Source of the DNA: a bacterium | Lineage (GTDB): Bacteria; Patescibacteriota; Minisyncoccia; Phycocordibacterales; CAIZLB01 | Reading direction: 5' to 3' | Assembly: GCA_031411135.1 (NCBI GenBank) | Contig: JANOAN010000013.1 | Span: 30,581-94,580, forward strand | Length of the DNA: 64,000 bases | In this document: positions 15,559 through 64,000 of the stretch, piece by piece | Layout: every line of letters begins with the position of its first letter | Numbering within the stretch: position 1 is the first letter of the stretch | The notes under the pieces: generated by a model | The model's database searches: none | Seen by the model: only the letters and a program-made list of their open reading frames with translations | Told to the model about the DNA's origin: nothing | Program-made: the position numbers and the translations under genes

Positions 15559-15623
15559 TTTGCTAAATAAATTGGAACTTTTAAAGAAACTAGTAACAAC
15601 AAGAGTACCCAGACTTTTTTTTA

Positions 15624-16577: not shown

Positions 16578-16648
16578 GTTGATTGTATTACATTAAGTGT
16601 ATGGTGATAAACCTACCACCAATATCCTATAAAGTAAAATTGGATTTT

Positions 16649-17296
16649 TTATGAGGCAGTTGCTGTAGCTGTAATTGTAGCCTGATAATTACCAGCTGGG
16701 ATGTATGTATTGTTTTGCTCTACTGCGTAGCAAACGACTGAATCAACACCTGATGGAGTCGTTGTAGAAGATCGACTAGCGATTTGCACACCTGACGTTG
16801 TGAATCCCTTGTATTTTAGAGTAGTTGAAGTACCGTTTGGAGTACTGTAACAAAGTGAGCCTGTTCCCCATGTACCTGTTGGTACATCCGTCCCGAAAGA
16901 TGAGTAACCGAAGTATGCCTGTCCTGATGTTGCAACCCAAAGGTTAGGAGCACCTGTCTGGTAATCCGCAATACTGTTTGGAGTTGTTGTTGAATTCATA
17001 GCAGGAGTAGAGGTTGCCTGCACAGTCAGTGTATATCCAGTAGCACTGTTTGTTTTAACATTCCATGTTGTTGTTCCGTTTGCCGAGTTCTGTGCAACAC
17101 CCAGTGCCGTGCTCATGTTTGAGTTTGAAGGACTTGTGATCGATACACCTGATGTTACGTTTAATGTGATAACAACAGAACTACTTGCAGTTGCTGCTCC
17201 GGCAGTAGCGGGTTCAATAATTGAGTAAGCACCTCCTAGTAGGAGTACCGAGACCAGAGAAGCGGCTGTGGATTTTTTTATAAGTGGTAACAACAT
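16649..17296 (-). CDS. secreted small surface protein, paralogue of 14788..15558 (WxL-like), first gene of the operon
   Basis: Signal peptide. TTWNVKTNSATGYTLTVQATSTPA...SGQAYFGYSSFGTD...AGNYQATITATATAS. A 190-nt AT-rich promoter region lies upstream. Confidence 0.65.
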   Translation of the reverse strand: MLLPLIKKSTAASLVSVLLLGGAYSIIEPATAGAATASSSVVITLNVTSGVSITSPSNSNMSTALGVAQNSANGTTTWNVKTNSATGYTLTVQATSTPAMNSTTTPNSIADYQTGAPNLWVATSGQAYFGYSSFGTDVPTGTWGTGSLCYSTPNGTSTTLKYKGFTTSGVQIASRSSTTTPSGVDSVVCYAVEQNNTYIPAGNYQATITATATAS

Positions 17297-50530: not shown

Positions 50531-50626
50531 GTAAAAAACCATATTTTTATGGGTGTTTTTCAATGTTTTCTACCAAACAACCGATGTTAGAACTACGATT
50601 ATGGAGAACAAAGGGTATATTTATAT
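50531..50626 (+). repeat. copy A of a ~95-nt hairpin-plus-conserved-block element (degenerate copy)
   Basis: Imperfect hairpin aaaaaaccat..atgggtgttttt, then agaactacgattatggagaacaaagggtatatttatat. It matches copy B at 36/38 positions. Confidence 0.6.
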
Positions 50627-50633
50627 ACTCAAA

Positions 50634-51209
50634 TTATAAAGGATTTGATAATAACAAATCTTCAGAATCTGGAATCGCATAAGCTTCGGCATTGGTTAAA
50701 TGCCCATCGTGTTGATCAATACGCACCAACTGTTTACCTTCTTTAAACACTAAAATTAAACCGTGTTCGCTATCCCATTCACATTTTAAGACGACTTCGA
50801 AATAAATCATTTTATTATTTTTCATATCCCCACCTTCACGATCTCTGTATTTTATATAAATAAATTTTGGGCTTATAAATTTCCATGCGTCTAAATAATT
50901 TTTTATGTGTAGGGGTTCTATATCTACCAACGTAATAGCTTGTTTGTAGTTCTCATACACCAATCTAGATACTTTTTCCTTATAGATTAAATTCAATTCT
51001 AAAAAAGATTTTACTGCGGTTGAAATTTTATTCTCAAACTCCAGCTCATTCTCATTCCAAAAGGCTTCTCCCCAGTCATCTTTGATCGTTATAGTAAACT
51101 GCACTTTCTTATTATCGAAGAATGGAATCTCTATTTCTTCACTACACATCCAGGCACTGATATCGACATCTGCTTTTAGATTACCTAATCCTTTAATATA
51201 GTTATTCAT
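50634..51209 (-). CDS. hypothetical protein (191 aa)
   Basis: ORF with no recognisable motif. Lies inside the repeat-flanked segment. Confidence 0.5.
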   Translation of the reverse strand: MNNYIKGLGNLKADVDISAWMCSEEIEIPFFDNKKVQFTITIKDDWGEAFWNENELEFENKISTAVKSFLELNLIYKEKVSRLVYENYKQAITLVDIEPLHIKNYLDAWKFISPKFIYIKYRDREGGDMKNNKMIYFEVVLKCEWDSEHGLILVFKEGKQLVRIDQHDGHLTNAEAYAIPDSEDLLLSNPL

Positions 51210-51248: not shown

Positions 51249-52745
51249 TTATTTTTTTAGTATTAGAAAATTATCCAGGAAGTCTTGGGCTTTTTTTGTA
51301 AAACTTCTTCTTTTTTCATCTCTCATTTTTTGATATGTAATACCGATAAAACCGAGTCTCCCCTCTCCTTTCAATTTATTGTAATGGGTGCCAACAAAAT
51401 TCCAAAAAAGAGAATCCCATATATCTGACCATTCACCTTTCTTATAATCACTCATTTTTAAAATATAGTTTGAGCCAGATATGTATGGTTTTGTAGTAAC
51501 TAGCCCACCATCAGCATATAGCGCCATACTGTAGACATTTGGGACCATCACCCAGTCATAGGCGTCTATGTAAAGCTCCATAAACCATTTATACACCTGA
51601 TCTGGATGAAACCCACATAAATTCATAAAATTTCCCATAACCATAAGTCTTTTAATATGGTGAGAATACGCTGTTTGCAAGACCTCATTTATCGTATGAT
51701 CCACAGGGCCAATACTTGTCGTTGCAGCCCAAAAACTTTCTGGAACATTTCTATGAGCATTAAAATAATTTGCATTACGAATCTTTGAGCCATCAAGTAT
51801 ATAGATAGCCCGCATATATTCACGCCAGCCAATTATTTGTCTGATAAATCCTTCAACAGAAGCAAGTGACGTGTGAGGGTTTTCTTTAACATATTCAAGA
51901 GTCTGTTCTATGACATATTGAGGAGTGAGTAAGCCTATATTTAAAACAGGAGAAAGAATGCTGTGAAAAAGTAAACCATTCTCAGTGGTGATAGCATCTT
52001 CATATGGTCCAAATGATTCTAGCTTTTCTTTCAAGAATTTCTTTAGCCAAATATTAGACTCTTGTTTTGTGACTGGATAGAAAAAGTAATCGTCATTGCC
52101 ATAGTTTGTTTTAAAATATTTCTCTACATACTCCTTAGCCTCTAATACATACCTGTTTTTAGAGTGCGGGGGCATTTCTGGAAGTTCTAGTCTTTTTGGC
52201 AACTTCTTTCTATTGTCCGTATCAAAACTCCATTTGCCCCCAGTCGGTTTACCGTCTTTTTCAATTAAAATACCTAATCTTTTGCGTTGCCACTCGTAAA
52301 AGTTTTTCATTAGATATGTGCGCCCGCCTTTTTGATTAGAAAAATAATCAATCAAAATCTTCTTTTCTGTTAAGTATAGAGGTGTATCGATAATCTCATG
52401 TCGAATGTTATGTTTTACAAGAGCCTTGATCAACCTTTTTTCAAGCCAATCATCGACTGGGTCACACATCTGAATTTTCGATATATTATATTTTTTCAAA
52501 ATACTGACCACGTCAGAAGTTTCTTTAAGGTCCTTGAATTCAACATACACGACTTCAAAACCCGAACTCACAAGCTCAGCTTCATAAGCTTTCATGCTTG
52601 CACGGTGTAGAACCAACTTCTGTTTATGGAATTTATATTGTGTAAAAAATAATGGTTCCTCTACAATAAAAACCAATACCCCCTTTTTGAGAATAGGGTT
52701 ATTTTCAAAAAGTTGATGTGGATAAATTAGTACAGCTTCTTTCAT
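51249..52745 (-). CDS. deoxyribodipyrimidine photolyase-related protein (DPRP, cryptochrome/photolyase superfamily)
   Basis: GFIRQIIGWREYMR, HHIKRLMVMGNFMNLCGFHP and YIDAYDWVMVPNV blocks are typical of the DPRP family. Confidence 0.75.
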   Translation of the reverse strand: MKEAVLIYPHQLFENNPILKKGVLVFIVEEPLFFTQYKFHKQKLVLHRASMKAYEAELVSSGFEVVYVEFKDLKETSDVVSILKKYNISKIQMCDPVDDWLEKRLIKALVKHNIRHEIIDTPLYLTEKKILIDYFSNQKGGRTYLMKNFYEWQRKRLGILIEKDGKPTGGKWSFDTDNRKKLPKRLELPEMPPHSKNRYVLEAKEYVEKYFKTNYGNDDYFFYPVTKQESNIWLKKFLKEKLESFGPYEDAITTENGLLFHSILSPVLNIGLLTPQYVIEQTLEYVKENPHTSLASVEGFIRQIIGWREYMRAIYILDGSKIRNANYFNAHRNVPESFWAATTSIGPVDHTINEVLQTAYSHHIKRLMVMGNFMNLCGFHPDQVYKWFMELYIDAYDWVMVPNVYSMALYADGGLVTTKPYISGSNYILKMSDYKKGEWSDIWDSLFWNFVGTHYNKLKGEGRLGFIGITYQKMRDEKRRSFTKKAQDFLDNFLILKK

Positions 52746-52876
52746 ATTATTTTTTTTGTTTGGTTCGACACTTTTTTTATTTTAAAACGGTGTGAGTATT
52801 TTAAACACAGTCTACAATTTATTGTTTGGTGGATATAAGTACATTATACCAGTTCCTCAATACCATTCTCCTACAG

Positions 52877-52970
52877 AAAAACACCCATATAAAATGGGTG
52901 TTTTTCGATTGCGCGCCGTAGTGAACGAAGTGAGAACTGCGATTATGGAGAACAAAGGGTATATTTACAT
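52877..52970 (+). repeat. copy B of the ~95-nt hairpin-plus-conserved-block element (intact copy, encodes a 35-aa ORF)
   Basis: Perfect 10-bp hairpin aaaacaccca-tataaa-atgggtgttt, then agaactgcgattatggagaacaaagggtatatttacat. Plus-strand ORF MGVFRLRAVVNEVRTAIMENKGYIYIPDLQNSTPR. Confidence 0.6.
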
Positions 52971-53025: not shown

Positions 53026-53733
53026 TTATAATCTCTTGCTTAATCTCTTATATGGAACTCTATTGGTAGTAAGTCTAGGATAAACCGTGTTTAAAACATC
53101 AAACTTATTATTTTCATTATATGTAATCATAATCTCTCCTATATCCTTAATATTAAGCTTTTTTAACTCGTTATGAACATTATGAAAAAAGTTTTCTTCA
53201 ATTTCTCCAGAAGACCCTAGTGTAATGAACAAATTTGTGGATCCGAGATCAAAAGCGTAATGTTCAAGCTTTTTCTTTAAGAAAGACATGAATTCTACAA
53301 TATTACAATTCCCCTTATAACTCTTTAGTTGAAAGGCTCTTAATGCATCTTCGCCAAGCAAACACACGTCTGTATAATGATTTTCTTTAATATTTATCTT
53401 TAAAGATTCCAGAGAGTTTATATTATGTTTAGTTGGATTGAAGCCATCTTTCATAAAGAAACAGACCCTGCTATCTTTTGGAAAAAAGGTCAGCATCATA
53501 TAGGCCACTGTAAATATTTCGACATCATCCTTATCATTCACAAGTGAGTACTGACTAGCAATCTCGTGCATTTTTTCTTTATTTCTTAAAAAATAAGGAA
53601 AATCCCCTTGCAAGAGACTTGTCTCTTCAAATATGCGCTTCGCAAGTTGTTCTCTAGAAGTGGCCTCAAAAATACGTCTGATATCCTGGACATCAAAACA
53701 AACTAGATTTAATTTTTTATGATAATAAATCAT
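53026..53733 (-). CDS. hypothetical protein, last gene of the MTase/helicase operon
   Basis: ORF 53026..53826. Start chosen at MIYYHKK, which gives a 17-nt overlap with the upstream gene. Confidence 0.5.
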   Translation of the reverse strand: MIYYHKKLNLVCFDVQDIRRIFEATSREQLAKRIFEETSLLQGDFPYFLRNKEKMHEIASQYSLVNDKDDVEIFTVAYMMLTFFPKDSRVCFFMKDGFNPTKHNINSLESLKINIKENHYTDVCLLGEDALRAFQLKSYKGNCNIVEFMSFLKKKLEHYAFDLGSTNLFITLGSSGEIEENFFHNVHNELKKLNIKDIGEIMITYNENNKFDVLNTVYPRLTTNRVPYKRLSKRL

Positions 53734-54475
53734 CGGAATACTTTTTAAGTGTTCCGTCCATGAGAGAAGCAAACAGATAAGTTGTGTCAACGATACTCTT
53801 ATAAAGCATAAAACTTTCATCTGCAAACTTGTTTAAAGTCTCATCGAACTTATTTTTGTCTTTCTTAAGTTCGTATAATGCCGCTTCGCCAAATGGACCT
53901 CCATGAACACCAGAAGACATATTTGTATACTCAATCAACCTTTCTAATAAGTACTCTTTTTTGTATCTCTTTATAGTCTCATTTTTCTCGTTATTGTTAT
54001 TTTCTATCAAGTAATGGAAAATCTTCTCAATACGAAAACCTTTGGCAACTTCTCTTATTTCATTATTATGATCACCCTTTGTACTCCATTTAGTTTCTTC
54101 TGGATAAACTATCTTTTTGTAATTAATAACTTTATCTACAGACTCTAAATCTTCATTGGCTCTAAGCGACTGGTAATAGGCTTCACCTGCAGAATCGGTA
54201 TCTTCGTTTAAAGCTTTAACAAATATGTATAAGTGCCTAAAGCTATGCTCAATCAAGGATCTGAATAAAATTGAAGCAGAATAAGGATCGCCACTTTTAC
54301 ATGAAAATAAAATAGTATTTATCAAATAACCACTCTTTGGAACAAAAGAGACCACTGCTTTGCCCGTATATTTAAACTTACTCTTACTTAAAGACTCTAT
54401 GATAAATGGTAGAGATGTCTGAATTTTTTTAGACAAGTTTTCATTTAAGACAAAATTTTCATCAATAGTAGCCAT
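53717..54475 (-). CDS. hypothetical protein (252 aa)
   Basis: ORF in tight operon spacing. No recognisable motif. Confidence 0.5.
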   Translation of the reverse strand: MATIDENFVLNENLSKKIQTSLPFIIESLSKSKFKYTGKAVVSFVPKSGYLINTILFSCKSGDPYSASILFRSLIEHSFRHLYIFVKALNEDTDSAGEAYYQSLRANEDLESVDKVINYKKIVYPEETKWSTKGDHNNEIREVAKGFRIEKIFHYLIENNNNEKNETIKRYKKEYLLERLIEYTNMSSGVHGGPFGEAALYELKKDKNKFDETLNKFADESFMLYKSIVDTTYLFASLMDGTLKKYSDDLLS

Positions 54476-54494
54476 AATTTTGTAGCTTTATATA

Positions 54495-54809
54495 CTAATG
54501 ACTACCCTTAGTTTGCTTTTCAAGCCTATCTATAATTTTGTCCTGGTTTGATTTTATCTCATTCAACAAATCCTTATTTTCATTTAACAAAACAGAACGT
54601 TCTTCAATCCTACTTTCATATTCTTTATACGTAACTGAAGAAAATCTAAAAGAATCGATGATAATTTGAATGAAAACCAATATAACAACTATCAAGACTG
54701 CGTAAATGATAGTCTGGGTAGAATTATATCTTCTGTCGGTATGCTCATTTGCCTTTGCAACAGCCCCGTTATAAACATCCTTGTTATTTTTAAAATTTAT
54801 TGGAGACAT
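54495..54809 (-). CDS. small single-pass membrane protein with a C-terminal coiled coil
   Basis: 104 aa. TM IIYAVLIVVILVFIQIII, then a heptad-like YKEYESRIEERSVLLNENKDLLNEIKSNQDKIIDRLEK. Confidence 0.5.
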   Translation of the reverse strand: MSPINFKNNKDVYNGAVAKANEHTDRRYNSTQTIIYAVLIVVILVFIQIIIDSFRFSSVTYKEYESRIEERSVLLNENKDLLNEIKSNQDKIIDRLEKQTKGSH

Positions 54810-54814
54810 ATATT

Positions 54815-55063
54815 TTATAGTGATAAATCAGGACACACAATTTTAAGAGCAAATTGATGAACTCTACCTGTTTTATTATCGATAACAACGACCATCGGTA
54901 TCCTTGGACCCCCACCTAGAGATATAACATTTGGATCTTGCTGAATGTCTAAAAATACTAAACCATCAACAAGTGTTAGGTCCCCGCTCAAACCAGCTGG
55001 ACCTGCAATCTTTTGTAATCCTTGCTGAATCTTTTCTTTATTGTTTTGAAAAAAATTATTCAT
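54815..55063 (-). CDS. hypothetical small protein (82 aa)
   Basis: ORF 9 nt downstream of the MTase stop. Confidence 0.45.
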   Translation of the reverse strand: MNNFFQNNKEKIQQGLQKIAGPAGLSGDLTLVDGLVFLDIQQDPNVISLGGGPRIPMVVVIDNKTGRVHQFALKIVCPDLSL

Positions 55064-55071
55064 GTATGTAT

Positions 55072-58000
55072 TTAGTTAAATTTTCTGATAATATCCTTTT
55101 CCTCATGGTTTAATTCATACAAATCCATAACCACTTCGTCTATTTCAAGTTCTAGATCTTTTGCATCGTTACTATCAGACTGTTTTAACTCAATAATCTT
55201 TTTAACAATATCAATAATATATTTTTGTTTATTTTCATTCGCGACCACAATAGGAATCTTTTTAATTTCATTACTGTTGATCCTCAAATAACCTCCAGCG
55301 AGCGAGAGCGAACTAAAATAAGTTTTGTACCACCAAGAAATGAGCTTTGAATTTAGAATACCTAGAAGATAGAGAAGATCGATTTTATCATTATCTAGAA
55401 TAATTGTTGTGGATTTTCCTGCTATATATTCTCCATTATCATAAAAAACTTCTAATCTCTTTGACATACCAGCAATAATGAGTTTCCTACCACTACTCTG
55501 CTTAAAACGGTTTGGTAATAGTTCAATTAGCTTTTCATCCAAGGCTATTGGTTTATCATAAGAATCCTTAATATACTGTGTTCTCTTGTTTCCCCACAAA
55601 GAAACGTAAGGGTCTATGGTTCCAGAGTTTATTAATTTTTTAAATTTGTCATCGTCTGTATTTACCTCTTTAATAATTTCTTTTAGTTGATATGCTTCAT
55701 TTACAGTCGCTGCACCCAGAACTAAATTATTAACTTTTTCAAGCGGAGGGTTTTTTGAAATCTTAACAATAACCTCTAATTCTTGAGGTTTAATAAAATA
55801 TCTATCCCAATAGATATCTGCATAAAATAAGGAATGCGGCACTGTATTTATTAAGTCATATTGCTCAATGTCTTTCATTTTTGTCAAAATAACACTCGAG
55901 CCAACATTTATCGAGTTGGACACTTGAAAAACTATAGGGTATACACTAGCCTCTTTAAAGACATTAACATCTGAATAATCCCTTATATATTTTATGTTTT
56001 TTGTTTGCATGTACGATCTAATAGATTCTGAATATTTCGCGGCAATTAATTTATTTGGAACAATATAGGAAAGATTTCCATAATTACTCAAAAACTTTAT
56101 TCCTTGCTCTATAAAAACGACAAATAAGTCCCAATTACCACTTGCACATTTATATTGTGATGTATAAAACTCTCGCAAGGCAGGATCATCTCTTACCATA
56201 GTTTCAGAATCTACATATGGTGGGTTCCCGATGACAACGTCAAACTTTTCTTCCATTCCAAACATCCATTCAGGATCAAACCAAGAATTTGAGTGGTTAC
56301 TGAATGGATCCCAAAGAGTCAATTTTTGAGTCAATTCACCGATATTTGAGCCGAAAGCTGACAAAGCTTTGTTAAGAATACTTTTTTGAGCATTCGTGAA
56401 TTTTAACTTCATTTCATTCTTTCTGTGACTATTACACGAGAAGTAATCTGACATTATTTCAGATAATTCTACTATGCCAGAATGATCATCAAACATGCTA
56501 ATTTTTTCTGATCTAGGTAGACCAATTAAGGTATTTGCACACACAAACTTAAAATCCAAGTTAGGTAAGGGTTCAATTCCCCTATTCGGCTTGTCATCAT
56601 ATATTTCTGATTCAACAACCAAAGTAAGAAAACATCTCAAACGAGATACGTCTACGGCGATAGGCTGAATATCCACCCCGAAGATTGAATTCTTTATAAC
56701 ATCAAGCTTTCTTGTGTAATCAAATGGATTGGAATGGACTTCATTAATTATTTTTTGCTTATATAACTCTGGTACCCCTTTTAATTTATGATTGAGCCAT
56801 AATTTACAATCTGGATCTATAGATTTTAAGATGAAAACAATTTTCTGCAATGCTCCTATTGGGTAGGCTCCAGAACCACAAGCTGGGTCAAGGAGTCTTA
56901 AAGACTCTATCGCATCAACAATCTTTTGCTTCTCGCTATCAGTTAAAGGGTACTCTACATCGTCATTCAAATCATAGCTTACAAGAGCAGATATTTTATT
57001 TATATCAATATCTGTCTTTATCTTAAGATACTCAATGAGAGACTGATCCACCATATATTCTACAATTTGGCGTGGGGTATAAAAACTACCAGTTCTTTTA
57101 CGCTCGCTACCTCCCGTTTCTGGATTAATTTCAGCAAGAAGGTTTTCAAAAATTCTACCAAGCATTTCTGGGTCAACAGAAAGTTCCTGGTCAAACGCTG
57201 TATTTTCATCGATAGTAAAATTGTATGTTTCCAACAACCCAAAGAAATCTCTAAACCAGACATCATTAACTTTGAGAGTATTTATATATTTTGAAGCAAA
57301 GGTTCCACGATCTAACTCATAATAGTCATCTAACTGCGGATTAAAAAGTCCACCATTGAGATAAGGGACCTTATCAAACAAATCATTACGGATATCTCGA
57401 GAATCAATACTAGTGTTTAGTACACCAAAAAATAAAGGCTCCAATATTTCATGGTAGTAATTACTATGAACAACCATTGAGGAAAGAAGTTCATCTGGGA
57501 TTAATTGTCCAGCAACAGACTTCTTTTGCTTCAAAAACCAACAAAACATAATACGACCAATTAGCCTGACGGCAAAACTTTTACGAATATTCTGATCTTC
57601 TTGCGATACTCCAGGGAGACTCAAGTAATTAGCTTGTTTTGAAATAAGTTCATCAAAGTATTTAGCTACCTCGAGATAGAATTGCTTATTAACGACCTCT
57701 ACAGAAAACCTACTCAATAAATCTTCACTGTTTTTTACTTTCCCTTTTTTGATCAACTGTTGCTGTGGTGTGTTAACCTTTGCATTAACACCTAAATAAA
57801 ATGAGTATCTTCTTGCATTAGAATACTTCCTTACCGCTTTATTCTTCTCATTTAGATCTAGAGATATAGTTAAGTAAGATAATCTGTAATTATCTGATTG
57901 GTTTTTGAATACTACCAAAGCTCGATGTATCCAGTGATCGGCAAGGATCTTAAAAGCATCAGTAGCAATAGCAATCCTGGGATCATTTTCTCTCTCGTGA

Positions 58001-58185
58001 TCCATCTCTAAAACATACAAATCCAGCGACTCACAAAAACCCAAGATTTTTGCTTTTGTAATCTCTTTATACCTATCTTTTTTGATTAGAATATCCTCTT
58101 CCTTCTCTACAAAATCTTCTGGTAGGAAGTCCTTTGCGAAGTGAAGAAAATGTTCAGATTGATACTTTTCATTAAATTTCATCAT
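55072..58185 (-). CDS. gamma-class N6-adenine DNA methyltransferase, large (1037 aa), PglX/DrmMI/Eco57I-like
   Basis: Motif X GSFYTP, motif I LDPACGSGAY, motif IV VIGNPPYV, in gamma order. Long helical N-terminal domain and a ~350-aa C-terminal TRD-like region. Confidence 0.85.
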   Translation of the reverse strand: MMKFNEKYQSEHFLHFAKDFLPEDFVEKEEDILIKKDRYKEITKAKILGFCESLDLYVLEMDHERENDPRIAIATDAFKILADHWIHRALVVFKNQSDNYRLSYLTISLDLNEKNKAVRKYSNARRYSFYLGVNAKVNTPQQQLIKKGKVKNSEDLLSRFSVEVVNKQFYLEVAKYFDELISKQANYLSLPGVSQEDQNIRKSFAVRLIGRIMFCWFLKQKKSVAGQLIPDELLSSMVVHSNYYHEILEPLFFGVLNTSIDSRDIRNDLFDKVPYLNGGLFNPQLDDYYELDRGTFASKYINTLKVNDVWFRDFFGLLETYNFTIDENTAFDQELSVDPEMLGRIFENLLAEINPETGGSERKRTGSFYTPRQIVEYMVDQSLIEYLKIKTDIDINKISALVSYDLNDDVEYPLTDSEKQKIVDAIESLRLLDPACGSGAYPIGALQKIVFILKSIDPDCKLWLNHKLKGVPELYKQKIINEVHSNPFDYTRKLDVIKNSIFGVDIQPIAVDVSRLRCFLTLVVESEIYDDKPNRGIEPLPNLDFKFVCANTLIGLPRSEKISMFDDHSGIVELSEIMSDYFSCNSHRKNEMKLKFTNAQKSILNKALSAFGSNIGELTQKLTLWDPFSNHSNSWFDPEWMFGMEEKFDVVIGNPPYVDSETMVRDDPALREFYTSQYKCASGNWDLFVVFIEQGIKFLSNYGNLSYIVPNKLIAAKYSESIRSYMQTKNIKYIRDYSDVNVFKEASVYPIVFQVSNSINVGSSVILTKMKDIEQYDLINTVPHSLFYADIYWDRYFIKPQELEVIVKISKNPPLEKVNNLVLGAATVNEAYQLKEIIKEVNTDDDKFKKLINSGTIDPYVSLWGNKRTQYIKDSYDKPIALDEKLIELLPNRFKQSSGRKLIIAGMSKRLEVFYDNGEYIAGKSTTIILDNDKIDLLYLLGILNSKLISWWYKTYFSSLSLAGGYLRINSNEIKKIPIVVANENKQKYIIDIVKKIIELKQSDSNDAKDLELEIDEVVMDLYELNHEEKDIIRKFN

Positions 58186-61100
58186 GCTATTAATTCTTCG
58201 GACAATACGATTAATTTACCGTGATCGTTCGCCCTATCTGCTGTCTGGAATATACTTTCTAGATATTTATTCGGCACAAGCTCACGGAGGGTCTGTAATG
58301 CACCGTCTGGATTAATTTTATCTATCTTCAAATCAGCCATCTCTTTAAGAACTCCCGTAGGAAAACCGTCTAGGTCTTTAATAACTCTTATAAGATCAAT
58401 GCATAGGTCTTTAGCCTGTGGGTATATTTCAGAGAGTAACTTAACCTTATTAAGGGCATCCTGTCTTCTCTTGCTATCAATTGGTGCTTTAGTATTCTCT
58501 TTAAAAATATGCTCTTTCGCCATCTTGTATATTGGATCGAAATTAATACTTGTAGCAAAAGGTTTCTCATCATCCCTCATATCATCAAAGAGAGGTAATG
58601 CGACCTGTGGAGAAACAATTTTTACAGTTTCTGGAGTCTCACCAAAAGCAAAGACATAATTTCCGCTCTTCTTTGCAAAAGCTACAACACCAGAAATTTT
58701 TCCTTTTCTAGCTATTCTGGATCTATAAGGTATCTCTGCTACCCTCTTCATAATTGCAGTATCATCTTTAATCTTGAGCCAAGTATTTCTATATGGAGCA
58801 TCCCAGGACAGACTCTCATTTTTAGAGTTCTCTTCCTTATACTGCTTCGCAAAATAGTTTTTAAGGTCTTCATCTGACGTAAGCGTCTTTGTATCTTCTC
58901 CCAAAAGAGTGTGAATAAGATCCATCTTTAGAGTGGAGATGGCTTTTGTTCTTGTCTCTTGTTCACCTGTTAGCGTAGGGAAAAAGTTAAAGATATAGAG
59001 TTCATCGAATACCTTTTTGTTGATACGGTTTATACGTCCAACTCTCTGGATGACACGAGTAGGGTTATACGGAATGTCATAGTTAATGATCGTACCAGCA
59101 CGGTGAAGGTTAAATCCTTCCGAAATAGCGTCTGTAGCTATAATGAGATCAAAATCGTCTGATTGCTTTGAAGTATCCAGTCCTGCATCAAAGTTTTTTC
59201 TGATCACCTCCTTATTTGCATCAGAAGCATCCTCGGAGCTGTATTTCAAAACACGCATCATCCCATCTTCACTCAATCTTTCATAGATATAATTAGCGGT
59301 ATCAGAAAATTCAGTAAAGATAATTATTTTTCTTTGTTTATTATTTTTTATAGATTCAGTTATCTTACCCCTCAAGAATTCATACTTTGGATCATTTTCA
59401 TTATTTTTCCATTCTGCCTGGATACCTTTCAATAGTTCAATATCCTTTTTAAGATCTTTTTCAAAATTAACGTCTATCTCTTCTACAGGAATTCGCATAA
59501 GCCCCTTATCTTCAAGTCTAGAGAATAATTCCTCTCTTTCACCATCTTCCATTTCATTAAGATCCTCCACATCTGGAAGCACTCCCTTCTTAAATATTGG
59601 CACCTCTTTTCGATTGACATACCAATCAAGCATTATCTCTGATGAATTGATCATGTTCTTAAGAGAGATGTTGAACGCTCCTACAGAACTCTCAAAACGC
59701 CTAACGAGAAGCCTTCGCATAAACCGAGCAACGTTTGCCTGTCCCTGTGTAATACGTTGAATTTTTTCTCCTATAGACATTCCATCTTCATCATCCTCAC
59801 TTTCGGCAAGCTTCCTTATAAAATCTGAACCCGCACGAATGTAACTTGCTGGTTTGTATCGCGCACCGATAAAGCTCGTGCTTCGATCTTCTGGAGCAAT
59901 CTTCTCTAAAGTATTTACATATAAATCAAACATATCCCCTAGGTCATACTCTAGTAATTCTGGATCTCTGACCTTTGCAAAAGATACACCTTGAGCCTTT
60001 AAGTCGTTTTTATAATCTTCAATTTCCTCGAGATCCAGTCTAGATCTACGAATAATGAGAGGCTCTATCATCTTTCTTAATTCATCAGCAATCGCGTGTA
60101 ATTCAGTCCTAACTTCAATGTTTTCTGCATCTGTTGCTGTACTACTTTTTCTTATTTCCTTTCGGATCGCTTTATATCGCTTAAAGAGCATATGGAATGA
60201 CATACTCAAGTTTTCTACCGTCCTAATTGTCGACTGTCCTGGTGTACTGAATAGCTTTATAAGGGCGTAGATGTCTTTAGGGTCATTGTTAAATGGAGTA
60301 GCAGACAAAGCCATCACATAATTACCAGCACAAAGTTGGTGAAGTATTTTGTAGTTTTCAGTGTCTTCGTTTCGATGTTTGTGAGCTTCATCAAGAATGA
60401 GAAGGAGTTTACCGTCCCTATTTCCATGTCTATCTAGTGCTTCTTGAATTTTTCCAGTTGAATATACAAAACCTTTAAAATCAAACTCTGACATGTAATC
60501 TTTCCATTGAGTTTCAAGGTGTGGAGGTGCAACGATAACAGTAGTCATCCCGAGGTTATGAGCTATAGCAGATGCCACTATACTTTTACCAAGCCCTACC
60601 ACATCAGCAATGATCACCCCACCGAACCTTTTGATACGATCGATACCGAGGTTAATAGCATCCTTTTGATATTTTAGATCTGAAAACTTTCCACCAGTAA
60701 TATGCTTCGGTGTTTTCATATCCTCAATTTCAGTTACGGCAAAATATTCTGCAAGAACTTTGTAGTACATGAGAAGCGGATCTGGTAAAGAGTACAGCCA
60801 AATTCTATTCTTAATCTCTTTGACAAAGTTTTCTGACGACTCAAGATCGGTAATTACAATGTTGTCTGGATTATTCCAGTGATCCTCAAACATTTTTACG
60901 TGATTTTGGTAATAGTGATTTTCCTGGAGGATAATATTATGCTCGCCCTGTCCCTTTAATCCAGAGAAAGTTAGGTTACTTGAACCCATAATGATCATTC
61001 CAGGCGTAATACCGTTTGTAGAAAATTCTTTTTTATTATGAAGTATGTAAAATTTTGAATGATTAGCTTGAGCAGTCTTCTTGATCTGCAAACTCCCATC

Positions 61101-61472
61101 TATTATTTTGTCTAGAAAAATCTTAAAGGCATCTTGTGATTCTTCATTATCAAAATAATCAGTGTCGTTAAATATCTTTGAAAAGTTTTCAATATAATCT
61201 TCCTTCACGCCAGATCTAGAATTAACACGAGTTTCTACAACATGGGAGTCGAAGTTCACATCTTTCATTGTAGAAACCTTATCAATAATTTTCTTATCAA
61301 TATCCATTCCTACCAAGATCCTAATCTCTTTGTCTTTCAGTTCATTATGAAGGTCTTTGAAGCCAGAAAAATAGAAATATCCCACAAGAGCATCTACCCG
61401 ATCACAGTTAGGGAGTATGCTTTTTAGGTTCGATGACAGTGTATTTGTACCTTCATTAGTTATAGACGACAT
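58182..61472 (-). CDS. PLD-family (HKD) nuclease domain fused to an SNF2-family helicase (1096 aa)
   Basis: N-terminal HSKFYIL...GSSNLT (HxK..GSxN). SNF2 motifs GLGKS, DEAH (LILDEAHKHRN) and LSATPFNN. Helicase-C (ATDAISEGFNLH...QRVGRINR). A 4-nt ATGA overlap with the MTase gene. Confidence 0.85.
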   Translation of the reverse strand: MSSITNEGTNTLSSNLKSILPNCDRVDALVGYFYFSGFKDLHNELKDKEIRILVGMDIDKKIIDKVSTMKDVNFDSHVVETRVNSRSGVKEDYIENFSKIFNDTDYFDNEESQDAFKIFLDKIIDGSLQIKKTAQANHSKFYILHNKKEFSTNGITPGMIIMGSSNLTFSGLKGQGEHNIILQENHYYQNHVKMFEDHWNNPDNIVITDLESSENFVKEIKNRIWLYSLPDPLLMYYKVLAEYFAVTEIEDMKTPKHITGGKFSDLKYQKDAINLGIDRIKRFGGVIIADVVGLGKSIVASAIAHNLGMTTVIVAPPHLETQWKDYMSEFDFKGFVYSTGKIQEALDRHGNRDGKLLLILDEAHKHRNEDTENYKILHQLCAGNYVMALSATPFNNDPKDIYALIKLFSTPGQSTIRTVENLSMSFHMLFKRYKAIRKEIRKSSTATDAENIEVRTELHAIADELRKMIEPLIIRRSRLDLEEIEDYKNDLKAQGVSFAKVRDPELLEYDLGDMFDLYVNTLEKIAPEDRSTSFIGARYKPASYIRAGSDFIRKLAESEDDEDGMSIGEKIQRITQGQANVARFMRRLLVRRFESSVGAFNISLKNMINSSEIMLDWYVNRKEVPIFKKGVLPDVEDLNEMEDGEREELFSRLEDKGLMRIPVEEIDVNFEKDLKKDIELLKGIQAEWKNNENDPKYEFLRGKITESIKNNKQRKIIIFTEFSDTANYIYERLSEDGMMRVLKYSSEDASDANKEVIRKNFDAGLDTSKQSDDFDLIIATDAISEGFNLHRAGTIINYDIPYNPTRVIQRVGRINRINKKVFDELYIFNFFPTLTGEQETRTKAISTLKMDLIHTLLGEDTKTLTSDEDLKNYFAKQYKEENSKNESLSWDAPYRNTWLKIKDDTAIMKRVAEIPYRSRIARKGKISGVVAFAKKSGNYVFAFGETPETVKIVSPQVALPLFDDMRDDEKPFATSINFDPIYKMAKEHIFKENTKAPIDSKRRQDALNKVKLLSEIYPQAKDLCIDLIRVIKDLDGFPTGVLKEMADLKIDKINPDGALQTLRELVPNKYLESIFQTADRANDHGKLIVLSEELIA

Positions 61473-61546
61473 TTGGACATTTTAGCACTTTACAGCTCAA
61501 AAATACAGGTTTTTAGCTCGTAAATGAAGACATTCTAGCTATGGGT

Positions 61547-62002
61547 TTACGGGAGGTAATTTCGCAATTTTTGGAGTTTCTTTTGAAGCCAACTCTGGTT
61601 TAGATTTTTTAGTTCATTATAACGAAGAGACACCTGGCAGATTATCCTCCTAATATGCTTATTGTTTGGTATCTTATTTTCTTGATCCGTAGCTCTGAAA
61701 AGCTCAAGTACATAGTCAATCCCCTTATCTGGATTTGCCTCTGCAAAATCAAAAGATGTGTAAATTATTCCCTGGATATAATCAACAAAACCAGTCTCCA
61801 TCCATACCGAGGGTCGATAGGTACCAAACTGTAACTTATGGGTCCTCATTGAGAGGATTAAATCATTGATAAAATTATATGACTCGCCCGCCGATTCCTC
61901 TGGTATATCGCAGTTGGGGCACTTTAGATCCTTTTCATAGGCAATAAAAAATTGTCCACATTTCTTACATTCATATTCTGCTGTGCGGATATGGTAAGTC
62001 AT
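61547..62002 (-). CDS. zinc-ribbon protein (CxxC-x12-CxxC), unknown function
   Basis: 151 aa with CKKCGQFFIAYEKDLKCPNCD. Lies 75 nt upstream of the PLD-SNF2 gene. Confidence 0.5.
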   Translation of the reverse strand: MTYHIRTAEYECKKCGQFFIAYEKDLKCPNCDIPEESAGESYNFINDLILSMRTHKLQFGTYRPSVWMETGFVDYIQGIIYTSFDFAEANPDKGIDYVLELFRATDQENKIPNNKHIRRIICQVSLRYNELKNLNQSWLQKKLQKLRNYLP

Positions 62003-62295
62003 TTATTATTTGTGTGATCTCTAACTCTGTCATTTTTAACAAGCTCATAGATATCTTCATCTAAATCATATTTAAGACTCAAAAACCACCAGATTAGTAT
62101 TGCTACAGGGAGAGTAAGGACAGCCATCAAGATTAATAAGCAAATAAATGATAGAAAATCGGCAAAGGTATGAAACTGATTTCCATAAAGGACCTTTATT
62201 GTTGCAAGCGTCCCTAATAATAATGCACATGAAATAAATCCAAACGCCTGGAGCACATCAACATGTTTCTTTATTTTTTTATTGTTTTCATTCAT
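61999..62295 (-). CDS. small 2-TM membrane protein
   Basis: ORF 61999..62352. Start chosen at MNENNKK to avoid overlap with the upstream gene. A 4-nt overlap with the zinc-ribbon gene. Confidence 0.4.
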   Translation of the reverse strand: MNENNKKIKKHVDVLQAFGFISCALLLGTLATIKVLYGNQFHTFADFLSFICLLILMAVLTLPVAILIWWFLSLKYDLDEDIYELVKNDRVRDHTNNK

Positions 62296-62299
62296 AAAT

Positions 62300-62602
62300 T
62301 TAGTAATCGAGAATATCAAGAACATCTCCGTATTTTTCACGAAATTGTTCATGTGTCATATTCATTTTTTTCCTGTACCCTTCAAGTTTTTCGTAATTAG
62401 AAAATTTCATAGCAATTTTGCCTCCCAATATAAAAATAATGCACACCGATACCAAATCAAAACCTCTATAAAAATTAAAACGAGCATCTTCGTCTCCAAT
62501 ACTAAAAAATAGAACGGCTAAACCAACAATTAGCAAGTACTGGAAAAAGTTCTTCCAAAATACTTTGTCTGTTGTTGGTAATCCTTCTTTTTTGTGTACC
62601 AT
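62300..62602 (-). CDS. small 2-TM membrane protein, first gene of the operon
   Basis: 100 aa, hydrophobic core (YLLIVGLAVLFFSIG...VSVCIIFILGG). Confidence 0.45.
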   Translation of the reverse strand: MVHKKEGLPTTDKVFWKNFFQYLLIVGLAVLFFSIGDEDARFNFYRGFDLVSVCIIFILGGKIAMKFSNYEKLEGYRKKMNMTHEQFREKYGDVLDILDY

Positions 62603-62636: not shown

Positions 62637-62719
62637 AGTGACTTTCGTCACTCGTACCAGTTTCCCGATACGGCCGATCAGAGCAAACCCCATATAATGG
62701 GTTCTTTGGCTCTGATCGG
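62637..62719. promoter_or_regulatory. nested inverted repeats in a divergent promoter region (putative operator)
   Basis: gtgac-tttc-gtcac. An 11-bp perfect inverted repeat ccgatcagagc...gctctgatcgg encloses the palindrome cccATATAATggg, a -10-like hexamer. Confidence 0.45.
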
Positions 62720-62850
62720 AGCTTCTTTCACCATGCCACCGATTGCTCGATGGTTTAGGCTACTTTTGGACTTATTTAGTTGTATATCAATGATAGCATG
62801 TTACTCCCCGCCGATAAACACTATTCTTTGTTTTAGGGTAAAATATAACC

Positions 62851-63582
62851 ATGAAGAACCAAGACCTATGTAAAGTACTCCAAAATAAGTCCTTGATAAG
62901 AGATTTCCTGTCTGGCCTAGTTGCCGACTCCCAAGTACACAAGTCATCGGAGTTTATAATCCCTTACCTTACTATAAAAAACCTAGCACCTAAAAAATCA
63001 GAAGTTAAAAGTATCCTTACCCTTCTATCGGGGGAAGGTGTGGTAAATATCATAGGTGTAGCATCCAATATATCGGAAAAAATATTCCCAACTAATTTTC
63101 TCGATATGGAGCTATCTCATGACCTTCATGCTAGCACCATTGAAGCTGTAAAAGTAAAAATAGATAGAAGTAAGATAATTAAAGTGTTAAATGCTGTAGA
63201 GGAAGCCTTGGAGACAAAGAGTACACCAGTAATTTTAAACTTATCTCGACGAGGAAGATTATATAGATTTATTAATAACCAAGAAGAATTCCACTCAATG
63301 ATGCCTCGTAGTCTCGACTACAGAATAATTGAATATTTTGCAAAACATCGATCTGAGCATTTATCTGCCAAAGAACTGGCTAATATCCTGGTAATTAAAA
63401 AGATAGATGAAGATAAGAAAACTCTTCCAGAGAAACGTATCAGTGATAGAATACGTGCAATTAAAAAGATTATCTTAAAAAAGTTCACTGGGATTGATCC
63501 AGACAGCTTCATACCTCACGCTAATGAAAATAATGGATATTGCCTCGGGAAAAATATAAAAATTAAGATTTCAGATTCTTAA
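62851..63582 (+). CDS. hypothetical protein with a possible C-terminal winged-helix (regulator-like)
   Basis: 243 aa. The C-terminal LSAKELANILVIKK...RISDRIRAIKKIILKKF resembles a DNA-binding wing. Transcribed divergently from the operon. Confidence 0.4.
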   Translation: MKNQDLCKVLQNKSLIRDFLSGLVADSQVHKSSEFIIPYLTIKNLAPKKSEVKSILTLLSGEGVVNIIGVASNISEKIFPTNFLDMELSHDLHASTIEAVKVKIDRSKIIKVLNAVEEALETKSTPVILNLSRRGRLYRFINNQEEFHSMMPRSLDYRIIEYFAKHRSEHLSAKELANILVIKKIDEDKKTLPEKRISDRIRAIKKIILKKFTGIDPDSFIPHANENNGYCLGKNIKIKISDS

Positions 63583-63696
63583 AACTCCTACTTGTTTATA
63601 ACTTCCTCCAAAGCCTTATAGTAAGGGCTTTTTTTATGCCAAAAACGTAGACGTTGAGGGTGTTTTGAGCCAGTACTTCCTTAATACAATCTAAGC

Positions 63697-63945
63697 ATGC
63701 TGGGAACAAATAGCCCTAGCAAAAGGTCGAAAGACTCCATCATGCTTACCTATCAACAAATCGAAAAATTTCAACTGATCTACAAAGAAGTGGTCGGTGA
63801 AGAAATATCCAAAGAAGACGCACTACTTCAAGGTGCGAAGCTTGTTCGATTGATGGAGATTATTTATCAACCAAGTAATAACACACAACAATTATCACAA
63901 CCGACAGAAATTAGTAACGAAAAAGAATTATCAAGTAAAAATTAA
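63697..63945 (+). CDS. hypothetical small protein
   Basis: 82-aa ORF. No motif. Confidence 0.35.
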   Translation: MLGTNSPSKRSKDSIMLTYQQIEKFQLIYKEVVGEEISKEDALLQGAKLVRLMEIIYQPSNNTQQLSQPTEISNEKELSSKN

Positions 63946-64000
63946 TCAAATGAATAAGAAGGAAATAGAAAAAATAATCCAGGAGCAGTCAATAAAACTC

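Follow-up and report, generated by a model that had tools for sequence, protein, structure and literature searches.

A candidate minimal restriction-modification module, formed by an HKD-SNF2 gene and an overlapping adenine methylase gene, as cargo of a mobile element in a CPR bacterium

In a 64,000-nt stretch of DNA from a CPR (Patescibacteria) bacterium, hereafter the window, two large overlapping genes code for an HKD nuclease fused to a SNF2 ATPase and for an N6-adenine methylase, and together look like a minimal ATP-dependent restriction-modification system, with an inferred logic of the Type III, ISP or MANTIS kind. In the explanation that we favour, to which as a whole we give a probability of about 0.6, the functional unit is this translationally coupled two-gene module, and the small genes around it are swappable cargo. 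The pair itself is cargo on a large-serine-recombinase integrative element, which is prophage-like in relatives.

The operon and its two large proteins

A first-pass annotation of the window described nine minus-strand genes between 62602 and 53026, all of which exist at those coordinates, and its view of them as a defence-type operon based on methylation is supported here. The features of the region are as follows.

62851 to 63945, plus strand: divergent mobile-element genes (243 aa and 82 aa), leading towards the genes past the window end
62637 to 62761, minus strand: LOOT RNA (Rfam RF03000), in the leader/divergent intergenic region ahead of the operon; full-length cmscan match
62300 to 62602, minus strand: 2-TM protein, 100 aa, first operon gene; from translation
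61999 to 62352, minus strand: membrane protein, 117 aa, at least 2 TM segments; from translation
61547 to 62002, minus strand: zinc-ribbon protein (CxxC...CxxC), 151 aa, directly upstream of the core pair; from translation
58182 to 61472, minus strand: HKD-SNF2 protein, 1096 aa, core gene 1; from Pfam, PADLOC and motifs
55072 to 58185, minus strand: gamma-class N6-adenine methylase, 1037 aa, core gene 2; from Pfam and motifs
54815 to 55063, minus strand: soluble 82-aa protein, opening the variable downstream slot; from translation
54495 to 54809, minus strand: single-pass membrane and coiled-coil protein, 104 aa, partner of the 82-aa gene; from translation
53717 to 54475, minus strand: DUF5677 protein, 252 aa, all-alpha; from Pfam
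53026 to 53733, minus strand: protein of an unannotated family, 235 aa from an ATG start, last operon gene
52876 to 52909, minus strand: intrinsic-terminator hairpin, 13-bp stem plus trailing U run, operon end; from sequence and a fold z-score of -4.2

The ATGA overlap reported for the two large genes holds, whereas a packing of 4–19 nt throughout is only roughly right: the zinc-ribbon gene lies 74 nt from the HKD-SNF2 gene, the first two operon genes overlap by 26–53 nt and the last two by 17 nt, and the remaining gaps are 5, 8 and 19 nt. Two gene products vary with the start chosen, with 108 aa in a public gene call versus 117 aa for the gene at 61999 to 62352, and 266 aa from a TTG-start ORF versus 235 aa from ATG for the last gene. 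The translations bear out a zinc ribbon (C-x2-C...C-x2-C), two 2-TM proteins and a single-pass coiled-coil protein, as announced for the small genes. The terminator hairpin belongs to a repeat of ~95 nt, for which repeat detection found a second copy at 50533–50626.

Pfam matches to PLDc_2, SNF2-rel_dom and Helicase_C bear out the domains originally read in the 1096-aa protein, where an N-terminal single-HKD nuclease of the phospholipase-D fold is followed by a complete SNF2/SF2 ATPase and a conserved C-terminal region of ~230 aa. The PADLOC 'HKD+Snf2' model matches residues 3–837 (E 5.5e-30), and the catalytic motifs are all intact: H138-x-K140, GSSN163-166, GLGKS293, DEAH361, SATP390 and QRVGRINR809 show little or no variation across 28 homologues. 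Its relatives form more than 120 clusters of 66–81% identity across CPR phyla. The protein is presumed to be the motor-nuclease ('Res-like') subunit.

The 1037-aa protein likewise keeps the domains first assigned to it, with Eco57I, N6_Mtase and TaqI_C matches. It contains the intact motifs DPACGSGA and NPPY, and belongs to the gamma class because motif I precedes motif IV and the target-recognition domain (TRD) is located at the C-terminus. A degenerate REase-like N-terminal domain (~1–135) precedes an HsdM-N/MmeI-like helical domain (~140–330), the core (~340–750) and a TRD of the TaqI_C type (~760–1037); the N-terminal two-thirds are conserved across homologues, and the TRD is hypervariable. 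It is presumed to be the modification and specificity subunit. Among the families of which it had been called typical, the Type IIG/IIL (MmeI/Eco57I-like) enzymes are the closest, and PglX and DrmMI drop out.

The two genes might instead represent independent systems that travel together, namely a self-sufficient Type IIG/IIL enzyme with an N-terminal nuclease and a SauUSI-like PLD-helicase, perhaps of Type IV, an alternative that we regard as improbable. A Type IIG model aligns to the methylase only from residue 155, leaving residues 1–154 uncovered, and no conserved D...(D/E)xK triad was seen in the N-terminal domain among 30 sequences; the E-M-D of this protein is E-V-K in a Parabacteroides homologue, and the domain could be an unusual active nuclease. 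Similarly, an MmeI-family partner encoded on Pseudarthrobacter pACHL02 gives no match on its N-terminal ~180 residues, the nuclease region of MmeI. As for the HKD-SNF2 protein, Pfam detects no DUF3427/SRA-type reader in it, while its C-terminal 230 aa could be a DNA or modification reader of its own; moreover, a Type IV enzyme beside an m6A methylase would have to ignore m6A. Finally, the obligatory ATGA overlap and a co-occurrence in 29 of 29 loci speak for a single unit.

Co-inheritance of the pair and exchange of its neighbours

Starting from the HKD-SNF2 gene, the methylase gene adjoins it in 26 of 26 informative genome loci, a figure that covers close relatives (66–81% identity) only, because the loci, nearly all from CPR metagenome-assembled genomes, were found via six peptide patterns. 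In the reverse direction, starting from the methylase, the HKD-SNF2 gene is adjacent in 3 of 3 contigs, and besides these 29 informative CPR loci the pair occurs on two IMG/VR viral contigs. The overlap of the core genes is about -4 nt (ATGA) in nearly all CPR loci and, together with co-occurrence, supports the functional coupling originally proposed. From locus to locus, helicase identity does not follow methylase identity (69%/77% in L023 versus 77%/45% in L009), and module shuffling is therefore indicated.

Beyond the pair, clustering of all ORFs in 28 loci gave mobile-element families only (serine recombinase in 11 loci, XRE HTH, ParB-methylase, terminase and a LexA-like protein), with no third conserved gene alongside the two. 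Of the neighbours whose constancy beside the fusion the first pass had proposed to check, the methylase is confirmed and the set of small genes is not. In this regard, the nine genes had been viewed as one integrated novel defence system, in which the small proteins would serve as indispensable sensors or effectors in place of DrmA/DrmB or BrxC/PglZ. Such a system would agree with the tight one-strand packing and the single terminator, with the recurrence, once, of the 82- and 104-aa genes directly behind a related methylase, and with the presence of DUF5677 proteins close to helicase/methylase modules on pACHL02 and in L035. It is nonetheless very improbable, since the neighbourhood analysis found the genes not to be co-conserved: of the seven small genes, just one zinc-ribbon homologue appears across at least 26 related loci, members of the DUF5677 and 235-aa families turn up in unrelated surroundings, at least 10 unrelated gene types fill the downstream slot, and the pair can adjoin a recombinase gene with nothing between. 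This last arrangement is seen in L003, L012 and L013, where the pair, by itself or together with an XRE regulator, directly abuts the recombinase gene, which comes after the methylase.

Upstream of the pair, the zinc-ribbon gene occupies a variable slot, held elsewhere by an XRE-type HTH regulator gene that ends 2–5 nt before the HKD-SNF2 gene (L003, L011, L012, L013, L027 and L050). Its 151-aa product has sub-threshold Pfam matches only, and it is the sole small gene that recurs among 27 genome loci, once, in L001 (41% identity, same position). The 117-aa protein has no family match and no tblastn match at any other locus, and the 100-aa 2-TM protein is not conserved with the core pair at other loci. 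Ahead of these genes, the LOOT RNA scores 91.6 bits against a gathering threshold of 46.4 (E 8.7e-17); it is also present in L001, L004/L045, L009, L010 and L018, mostly adjoining a serine recombinase gene, and belongs to the mobile element.

The downstream slot, empty in some loci, elsewhere contains an ABC/SMC-like ATPase, DUF2779, AbiJ_NTD4, PDDEXK_1, NERD, SNase, HEPN_Swt1/DUF4145, NYN or genes without a known family. In the window its first gene, for the 82-aa protein, has no family matches and is absent from all loci but the metagenome contig L044, where a homologue (77% identity) is located directly after a methylase C-terminus and before a serine recombinase gene, adjoining a homologue of the 104-aa gene (67% identity). 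The abortive-infection-type effector role that the first pass had seen as fitting the 104-aa membrane protein gained no support. The four downstream proteins had been described as free of recognisable motifs, which does not apply to the 252-aa one, a DUF5677 member (Pfam 29.2 bits, cut-off 27.1) that bears the invariant motif R72-x4-H77 and is loosely linked cargo, possibly a HEPN-like auxiliary effector. On the other hand, the 235-aa gene is independent, stand-alone cargo, from a family of 139 cluster representatives without annotation whose neighbourhoods elsewhere are an OLD-ATPase operon, a Bro-N cluster and the interval between aspS and dnaE. Some of the cargo may modulate the core, given the shared recurrence in L044 and the DUF5677 genes near other helicase/methylase modules.

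The element itself can be followed on Logan contig L028, which is identical to the window, runs ~4 kb further and encodes a P-loop protein (412 aa) and a large serine recombinase (540 aa) past the window end. Across loci, the pair rides on elements with serine recombinase and terminase genes, next to tRNA genes, and it is present on the two viral contigs. These settings, and a very high identity across many CPR phyla that implies frequent horizontal transfer, would suit a module that chiefly serves the mobile element, either by methylating element or co-resident DNA against restriction or as an addiction or exclusion device against competitors or element-free cells. We hold this to be unlikely as the main role: it is compatible with a restriction-modification function, classical systems doing likewise, and the conserved nuclease and motor motifs point to real cleavage rather than to a protective orphan methylase.

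Relationship to known systems

The pair resembles class 1 DISARM and BREX in combining a SNF2-type helicase with a large adenine methylase from the wider superfamily related to Eco57I, and a PLD nuclease (DrmC) can be part of DISARM as well. An identity with either was rejected, as the first pass had held, since DrmA, DrmB (DUF1998), BrxC/PglY and PglZ are absent from the region, an absence already recorded then for DrmA, DrmB, BrxC and PglZ. Against the models of DrmD, PglX and DrmMI, the proteins score far under the curated cut-offs (149 versus 610 bits; 78 versus 500 bits).

MANTIS/Gao_RL (BR type 2, MtsA-D), overlooked at that stage, is the nearest multi-gene relative that has been characterised, with an HKD(PLD)-SF2 fusion, N-terminal HKD and presumed effector, beside a large N6-adenine methylase, and with an ATP-dependent, restriction-modification-like logic that in the pair would be similar. 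The MANTIS methylase guides modification as well as restriction but needs the AAA+ loader MtsA to bind DNA, and MtsD (HKD-SF2), whose nuclease activity is not yet reconstituted, is a dimer with one PLD site that resembles SauUSI (bioRxiv 10.64898/2026.09.23.753747). In contrast, the pair lacks the DUF499 AAA+ loader (MtsA) and the DUF3780 protein (MtsB), both needed there for methylation and restriction, its methylase belongs to the MmeI/Eco57I (Type IIG-like) group and has conserved REase-like and helical domains of its own at the N-terminus, and its two overlapping genes are the whole conserved unit. An identity with MANTIS/BR type 2 was also rejected, since the partners that define it are lacking and the scores fall short of the curated model cut-offs. 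A decayed or split version relying on DUF499 AAA+ loader and DUF3780 genes at another site of the genome could be argued from the full-length PADLOC 'HKD+Snf2' match and from the N-terminal HKD that defines the BR type-2 helicase (PMC12839542). It is scarcely credible: neither family is found in the operon, among the L028 genes past the window end or conserved beside 31 loci, a compact unit moving between phyla on small elements is hard to square with a requirement in trans, and the related Pin17FIII methylates without any partner.

Type IIG/IIL enzymes consist of an N-terminal domain, a helical spacer, a gamma-class methylase and a C-terminal TRD. The methylase of the pair shares its family, this domain order and swappable TRDs with MmeI, DrdV, Eco57I, BpuSI and REBASE Pin17FIII, but differs in having no detectable N-terminal PD-(D/E)XK triad and an obligatorily attached HKD-SNF2 gene. 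Pin17FIII of Prevotella intermedia, which has a SNF2 helicase upstream, methylates asymmetric GGYGAB when expressed alone (PMC5608340), and a PLD+SNF CDS next to a Type IIG-like CDS has already been noted (PMC9881135). Distant versions of the pair are found in Bacteroidota, Actinomycetota and Deinococcota. A Parabacteroides locus (43%/34% identity) contains HTH, a Schlafen/AlbA_2-domain gene annotated as RNA-binding, SNF2 and methylase genes; in Prevotella nigrescens, HTH, helicase and methylase genes are accompanied by inverted gene fragments with Eco57I domains, which resemble silent TRD cassettes; pACHL02 combines PLD-SNF2 with a nuclease-less MmeI-family methylase (MmeI_hel, MmeI_Mtase and MmeI_TRD matches); and Thermus carries the same architecture.

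Type III (Mod and Res) and Type ISP (LlaGI/LlaBIII) systems also join a specificity-giving methylase with TRD to an SF2 motor fused to a nuclease, and asymmetric sites with hemimethylation would be expected in common. However, Mod is beta-class and Res has a C-terminal PD-ExK with a Rad25-like helicase, against the gamma class and the N-terminal HKD with SNF2 motor of the pair, and Type ISP enzymes are single polypeptides with an Mrr-like nuclease. SauUSI (Type IV) and CglI/NgoAVII share the PLD/HKD nuclease with SF2 ATPase, a single HKD per chain implying a dimeric site; SauUSI differs in its own C-terminal reader domain, its modified-DNA target and the lack of a methylase partner, and CglI in a nuclease and helicase split into R and H subunits and in a C5 methylase.

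Proposed mechanism of the two-gene module

In the favoured two-gene reading, the MmeI/Eco57I-type methylase would read a short asymmetric site via its TRD and place m6A on one strand, marking self. At unmethylated sites it would recruit or license the HKD-SNF2 protein, probably through its conserved degenerate REase-like N-terminal and helical domains. Two HKD-SNF2 protomers would join their single HKD motifs in a shared active site, as BfiI, SauUSI and MtsD do, translocate on dsDNA with ATP and cut foreign DNA. We infer restriction, site recognition, hemimethylation and the physical interaction of the pair, and because the MANTIS methylase depends on its loader, a loader-free version is not guaranteed to work like MANTIS. 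The three upstream and four downstream genes would be element-specific passengers and not required parts, perhaps a regulator substitute, a HEPN-like backup effector (DUF5677), the rare 82- and 104-aa pair and the stand-alone 235-aa gene. Mentioned only in passing in its Prevotella version, Pin17FIII included, and without a name of its own, the HKD-SNF2 and methylase pair is an uncharacterised module that is widespread.

A two-gene core within the operon

The nine minus-strand ORFs described in the first-pass annotation are all present in the sequence and its translations, and they are tightly packed, although not with the uniform spacing of 4–19 nt claimed there, since the HKD-SNF2 gene is preceded by a gap of 74 nt, and overlaps measuring 17 nt and 26–53 nt are also found. 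As stated there, the HKD-SNF2 and methylase genes overlap in ATGA. A strong hairpin terminator lies 3′ of the last operon gene. The features on which the argument turns are the following:

53026–62602, minus strand: operon of nine genes
58182–61472, minus strand: gene for the 1096-aa HKD-SNF2 protein
55072–58185, minus strand: gene for the 1037-aa methylase
53717–54475, minus strand: gene for the 252-aa protein, one of four small genes downstream of the methylase (82, 104, 252 and 235 aa); the three upstream encode proteins of 100, 117 and 151 aa, the last a zinc ribbon

Among the seven small proteins, that of 252 aa is a member of DUF5677 (Pfam), and the other six have no family match in Pfam, NCBIfam, PADLOC or PHROGs; apart from this Pfam assignment, nothing usable was obtained from PHROGs, PADLOC or NCBIfam for the small proteins or for the genes of the element beyond the window. 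When the 9.7-kb region was compared by megablast with collections of phages and plasmids, no match was obtained.

Relatives of the HKD-SNF2 protein number in the thousands. The 120 best clusters among them are 66–81% identical over the full length and come from Moranbacteria, Paceibacteria, Nomurabacteria, Kaiserbacteria, Roizmanbacteria, Doudnabacteria, Falkowbacteria and other CPR groups, with one Bacillota MAG and some sequences deposited as Saccharibacteria among them. In all 26 genome loci where the contig continues (27 loci compared), the methylase gene directly follows, and the three contigs picked from the methylase side all carry an HKD-SNF2 gene upstream; the pair is also found on two IMG/VR contigs. 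In almost every CPR locus, both genes are inferred to join through a 4-nt overlap, and the identities of helicase and methylase are uncoupled between loci. All-against-all clustering of the ORFs of 28 loci revealed no third conserved gene, the next commonest families being a large serine recombinase (11 loci), an XRE-type HTH protein, a ParB-methylase, the small and large terminase and a LexA-like repressor. Where present, the XRE-type HTH gene ends 2–5 nt before the HKD-SNF2 gene. Proteins of ~300 aa encoded after related pairs at several loci were considered as a hidden conserved third component and ruled out, their pairwise similarity being nil.

The small genes are missing from the 27 genome loci with a single exception, a zinc-ribbon homologue (41% identity) at the same position of locus L001, and in three other loci (L003, L012 and L013) the recombinase gene abuts that of the methylase. 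Since no third gene is conserved, the small genes are absent and the recombinase can lie directly against the methylase, the conserved unit is a gene pair, frequently accompanied upstream by a small regulator. The sequence observations of the first-pass annotation largely stand, but its interpretation of the nine genes as one novel defence system is not borne out.

Anatomy of the core proteins and their relatives

The 1096-aa protein comprises PLDc_2, SNF2-rel_dom and Helicase_C domains (Pfam), with the PLDc_2 match spanning residues 48–199, the HxK and GSSN motifs at 138–140 and 163–166, and the SNF2 core at 280–870; it also matches the PADLOC model ‘HKD+Snf2’ (E 5.5e-30). The single HxK...GSSN signature and the SF2 motifs I, II, III and VI are invariant in 28 HKD-SNF2 sequences, where the C-terminal 230 aa are conserved as well. 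In BfiI, SauUSI and MtsD, single-HKD chains dimerise to form one active site, and the presence of one HKD per chain implies a similar dimerisation of HKD-SNF2 into a single active site. When compared with PDB sequences (phmmer), the helicase gave generic SNF2/RapA matches only, SauUSI and MtsD being out of sequence reach.

The 1037-aa protein contains Eco57I, N6_Mtase and TaqI_C domains, along with weak matches to MmeI_hel and MmeI_Mtase (Pfam), and a phmmer search of PDB sequences returned TaqI alone, with MmeI out of sequence reach. Its N-terminal 550 aa are kept at 65–88% column identity, and the C-terminus is hypervariable at ~25%, a pattern characteristic of target-recognition domain (TRD) swapping. 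The N-terminal domain is read here as a degenerate nuclease domain kept as a scaffold, for which residual activity is possible.

Searches of plasmids by tblastn showed the same architecture at lower identity in other phyla. Parabacteroides distasonis carries an HTH gene, a Schlafen/AlbA_2-domain gene (annotated as RNA-binding), SNF2 and methylase (43%/34% identity), Prevotella nigrescens has HTH, helicase and methylase genes with partial Eco57I-domain genes on the opposite strand, and Thermus oshimai shares the architecture. In Pseudarthrobacter pACHL02, a PLD-SNF2 protein accompanies an MmeI-family methylase whose N-terminal ~180 residues have no family match, and the nuclease of MmeI is located in the N-terminal region that corresponds to those residues. 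HxK and GSSN are retained in all four relatives and lost in a DISARM-like locus of Bacillus cereus. The partial ‘Eco57I methylase domain’ genes of P. nigrescens (L047, 14020–16523) lie downstream of the HTH-helicase-methylase trio and resemble silent TRD cassettes that would switch specificity by inversion; the window has no silent TRD cassettes or long inverted repeats. In Prevotella intermedia, m6A at GGYGAB was assigned to Pin17FIII expressed alone, and an SNF2 helicase is found upstream (PMC5608340).

Comparison with known defence systems

The kinship with DISARM and BREX suggested by the enzymes was examined through partners and scores. As had been pointed out, DrmA (YprA-type helicase) and DrmB (DUF1998) are absent, no such domain being found by Pfam, PADLOC or NCBIfam in the operon or neighbouring ORFs, and neither a BrxC/PglY ATPase nor a PglZ phosphatase occurs in the operon and its flanks. 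The helicase is not an equivalog of the class 1 DISARM DrmD, since it reaches 149 bits against a cut-off of 610 (NCBIfam DISARM_DrmD) through its C-terminal helicase lobe only, and the methylase matches the PADLOC model of DrmMI with an E-value of 1e-15 in comparison with 2e-82 for REase_MTase_IIG. Likewise, the match to PglX/BrxX is confined to the NPPY region, with 77.8 bits versus a cut-off of 500 (NCBIfam BREX_1_MTaseX). Membership of DISARM and of BREX thus fails on both the defining partners and the curated score cut-offs.

The closest characterised system is MANTIS, also known as Gao_RL, which corresponds to BR type 2 (PMC12839542). It is composed of a DUF499 AAA+ loader, a DUF3780 protein, an N6-methylase governing methylation as well as restriction, and a dimeric, SauUSI-like HKD-SF2 effector (bioRxiv 10.64898/2026.09.23.753747). 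Like MANTIS, the pair combines an N-terminal HKD endonuclease, which replaces the TUDOR domain in the helicase, with an adjacent N6-methylase. However, the DUF499 ATPase (MtsA) was found neither among the operon proteins nor in the two genes below nor among the element genes of L028, a public contig identical to the window that runs past its end, and no large third gene is conserved in related loci. Stand-alone DUF3780 (MtsB), present in 98% of type-2 loci, has no match among the seven small proteins.

With the Type IIG/IIL enzymes (MmeI/Eco57I), the methylase shares a gamma-class N6-adenine core, a helical spacer and a C-terminal TRD in one chain. Those enzymes also have an active PD-(D/E)XK endonuclease at the N-terminus, of which the presumably degenerate domain of the methylase may keep some activity. 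The Mod subunit of Type III restriction-modification (R-M) is instead beta-class with an internal TRD, and Res joins a Rad25-like helicase to a C-terminal PD-ExK, in contrast with the SNF2 motor and N-terminal HKD found here; Type III enzymes need ATP and a pair of unmethylated sites in inverse orientation to cut. The Type IV enzyme SauUSI also carries PLD and SF2 in one chain, but it has a C-terminal modified-base reader (DUF3427) and no cognate methylase, whereas the pair has no DUF3427 match and always an overlapping methylase gene; SauUSI in the PDB gives no sequence-level match to HKD-SNF2. A literature search for a named or tested two-gene form retrieved passing mentions only.

Mobile setting, associated RNA and passenger genes

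The DNA of the window is chromosomal, from a bacterium of the CPR/Patescibacteria type, and not phage. A long run of genes on one strand, tRNAs (two in the window) and a 2540-aa protein could have favoured a phage reading, which is ruled out by the housekeeping genes pth, lepB, hisS, pyrG, ftsEX, prfB and gltX; ribosomal protein S1 is encoded as well. The 2540-aa protein (5589–13211, minus strand), secreted, repeat-rich and rich in Thr, Ser and Gly, is followed by several signal-peptide proteins (13208–14746 and 14788–17296), probably forming a giant surface/adhesion cluster unrelated to the pair. From ~50 kb to the window end, G+C falls from ~0.39–0.42 to 0.30–0.37. Contig L028 runs ~4 kb beyond position 64000 and there carries small genes, the gene for a 412-aa P-loop protein and, closing the region, that for an XisF/Ccr-like large serine recombinase of 540 aa with Resolvase, Recombinase and Zn_ribbon_recom domains. 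This terminal recombinase places the pair inside an integrative mobile element. Further features of this setting are:

62637–62761, minus strand: full-length LOOT RNA (Rfam RF03000; 91.6 bits versus a gathering threshold of 46.4), in the divergent intergenic region ahead of the operon
50533–50626 and 52876–52970: the two window copies of a ~95-nt direct repeat (terminator hairpin plus 45-nt box, 91% identical)
51249–52745: DPRP photolyase-related gene
50634–51209: DUF6985 gene

Several pair-carrying elements have tRNA genes at their edges (L003 9607–9677, L012 9607–9677, L013 4604–4674, L027 9581–9651, L007 6412–6483 and L014 6275–6345), a position compatible with integration next to tRNA genes by the serine recombinase. 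These genes lie ~60 nt before the XRE-HKD-SNF2 genes or abut the recombinase gene. Group I introns (RF00028, 82–91 bits) adjoin or overlap the 3′ end of serine recombinase genes at L001 1265–1541, with a tRNA gene nearby, and at L020 4253–4540, and a DUF3800-II RNA (RF02961, 65 bits) maps ~6 kb downstream of the pair at L002 22874–22935.

LOOT RNA also occurs in five related CPR loci (L001 6540–6661, L004/L045 983–1119, L009 4141–4276, L010 7560–7689 and L018 3278–3408), three of which have it immediately next to the gene for the large serine recombinase, and this suggests that it is a component of these integrative elements. To our knowledge, the motif came previously from metagenomes only and had no assigned function. 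Concerning the direct repeat, just below the operon, it was checked as att site of the island and encloses instead the DPRP and DUF6985 genes, the far end of the island being outside the available sequence. Its two copies indicate that the defence operon and this gene pair finish with the same 3′ module, which may represent a 3′ UTR element common to both, or the scar of a recombination or insertion.

The slot 3′ of the methylase is occupied by unrelated genes that differ by locus, including those for an ABC/SMC-like ATPase, DUF2779, an AbiJ_NTD4 protein, PDDEXK_1 nucleases, NERD, SNase, HEPN_Swt1/DUF4145, NYN and RhuM/Fic proteins, and many unknowns. The downstream genes of the window fit this pattern. 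The 82- and 104-aa pair was found once more, directly flanked by a related methylase C-terminus and a serine recombinase gene on a metagenome contig of 1.3 kb, and is a rare accessory; the unannotated family of the 235-aa protein (~139 cluster representatives) has members in unrelated neighbourhoods. An R-x4-H motif, typical of HEPN RNases, is invariant in DUF5677 proteins, which are encoded in the window, L035 (5001–5762) and L052 (14588–15415). DUF5677 genes repeatedly adjoin helicase/methylase restriction-like genes in CPR and in an Actinomycetota plasmid, there beside a TIR protein, and the family may be an unrecognised auxiliary defence effector.

Altogether, we infer that the pair is best described as a minimal ATP-dependent R-M module, in which a Type IIL-like methylase and an HKD-SNF2 motor follow a logic like that of Type III, ISP and MANTIS systems. 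The methylase would bind a short asymmetric site and place m6A on one strand as a self mark; at an unmodified site, it would recruit the HKD-SNF2 dimer, which would then translocate with ATP and cleave the DNA. Known here from sequence, the pair is a real and widespread two-gene variant of known methylation-based defence, located on a mobile element with interchangeable passengers. A more ambitious reading, to which we give roughly one chance in three, is that HKD-SNF2 and a nuclease-less methylase of the MmeI/Eco57I type make up a class of ATP-dependent R-M in its own right that needs no loader, a minimal relative of MANTIS where the conserved but degenerate REase-like N-terminal domain of the methylase replaces the AAA+ loader as the coupling to the motor-nuclease. 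Among the helicase-linked R-M systems of CPR, this class would be dominant; it would be dispersed by serine-recombinase elements that also bear LOOT RNA, and its downstream slot would dock swappable backup effectors (HEPN-like DUF5677, PDDEXK, AbiJ, membrane pairs).

For annotation, labels such as ‘Type IIG’ on the methylase, and ‘DrmD’ or ‘SNF2 helicase’ on its partner, overlook the two-gene unit. If the pair works alone, no simpler member is known in the BREX-related/MANTIS branch of methylation-based immunity, and the case would show that a PLD-SF2 motor-nuclease can be guided by a Type IIL-like methylase in the absence of an AAA+ loader; such a loader-free pair would help to tell the role of the loader from that of the motor in BREX and MANTIS. 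Moreover, its swappable TRDs could be a source of new programmable m6A specificities. In the CPR/Patescibacteria, with their tiny genomes and few known defences, the pair is among the most conserved and mobile defence cargoes.
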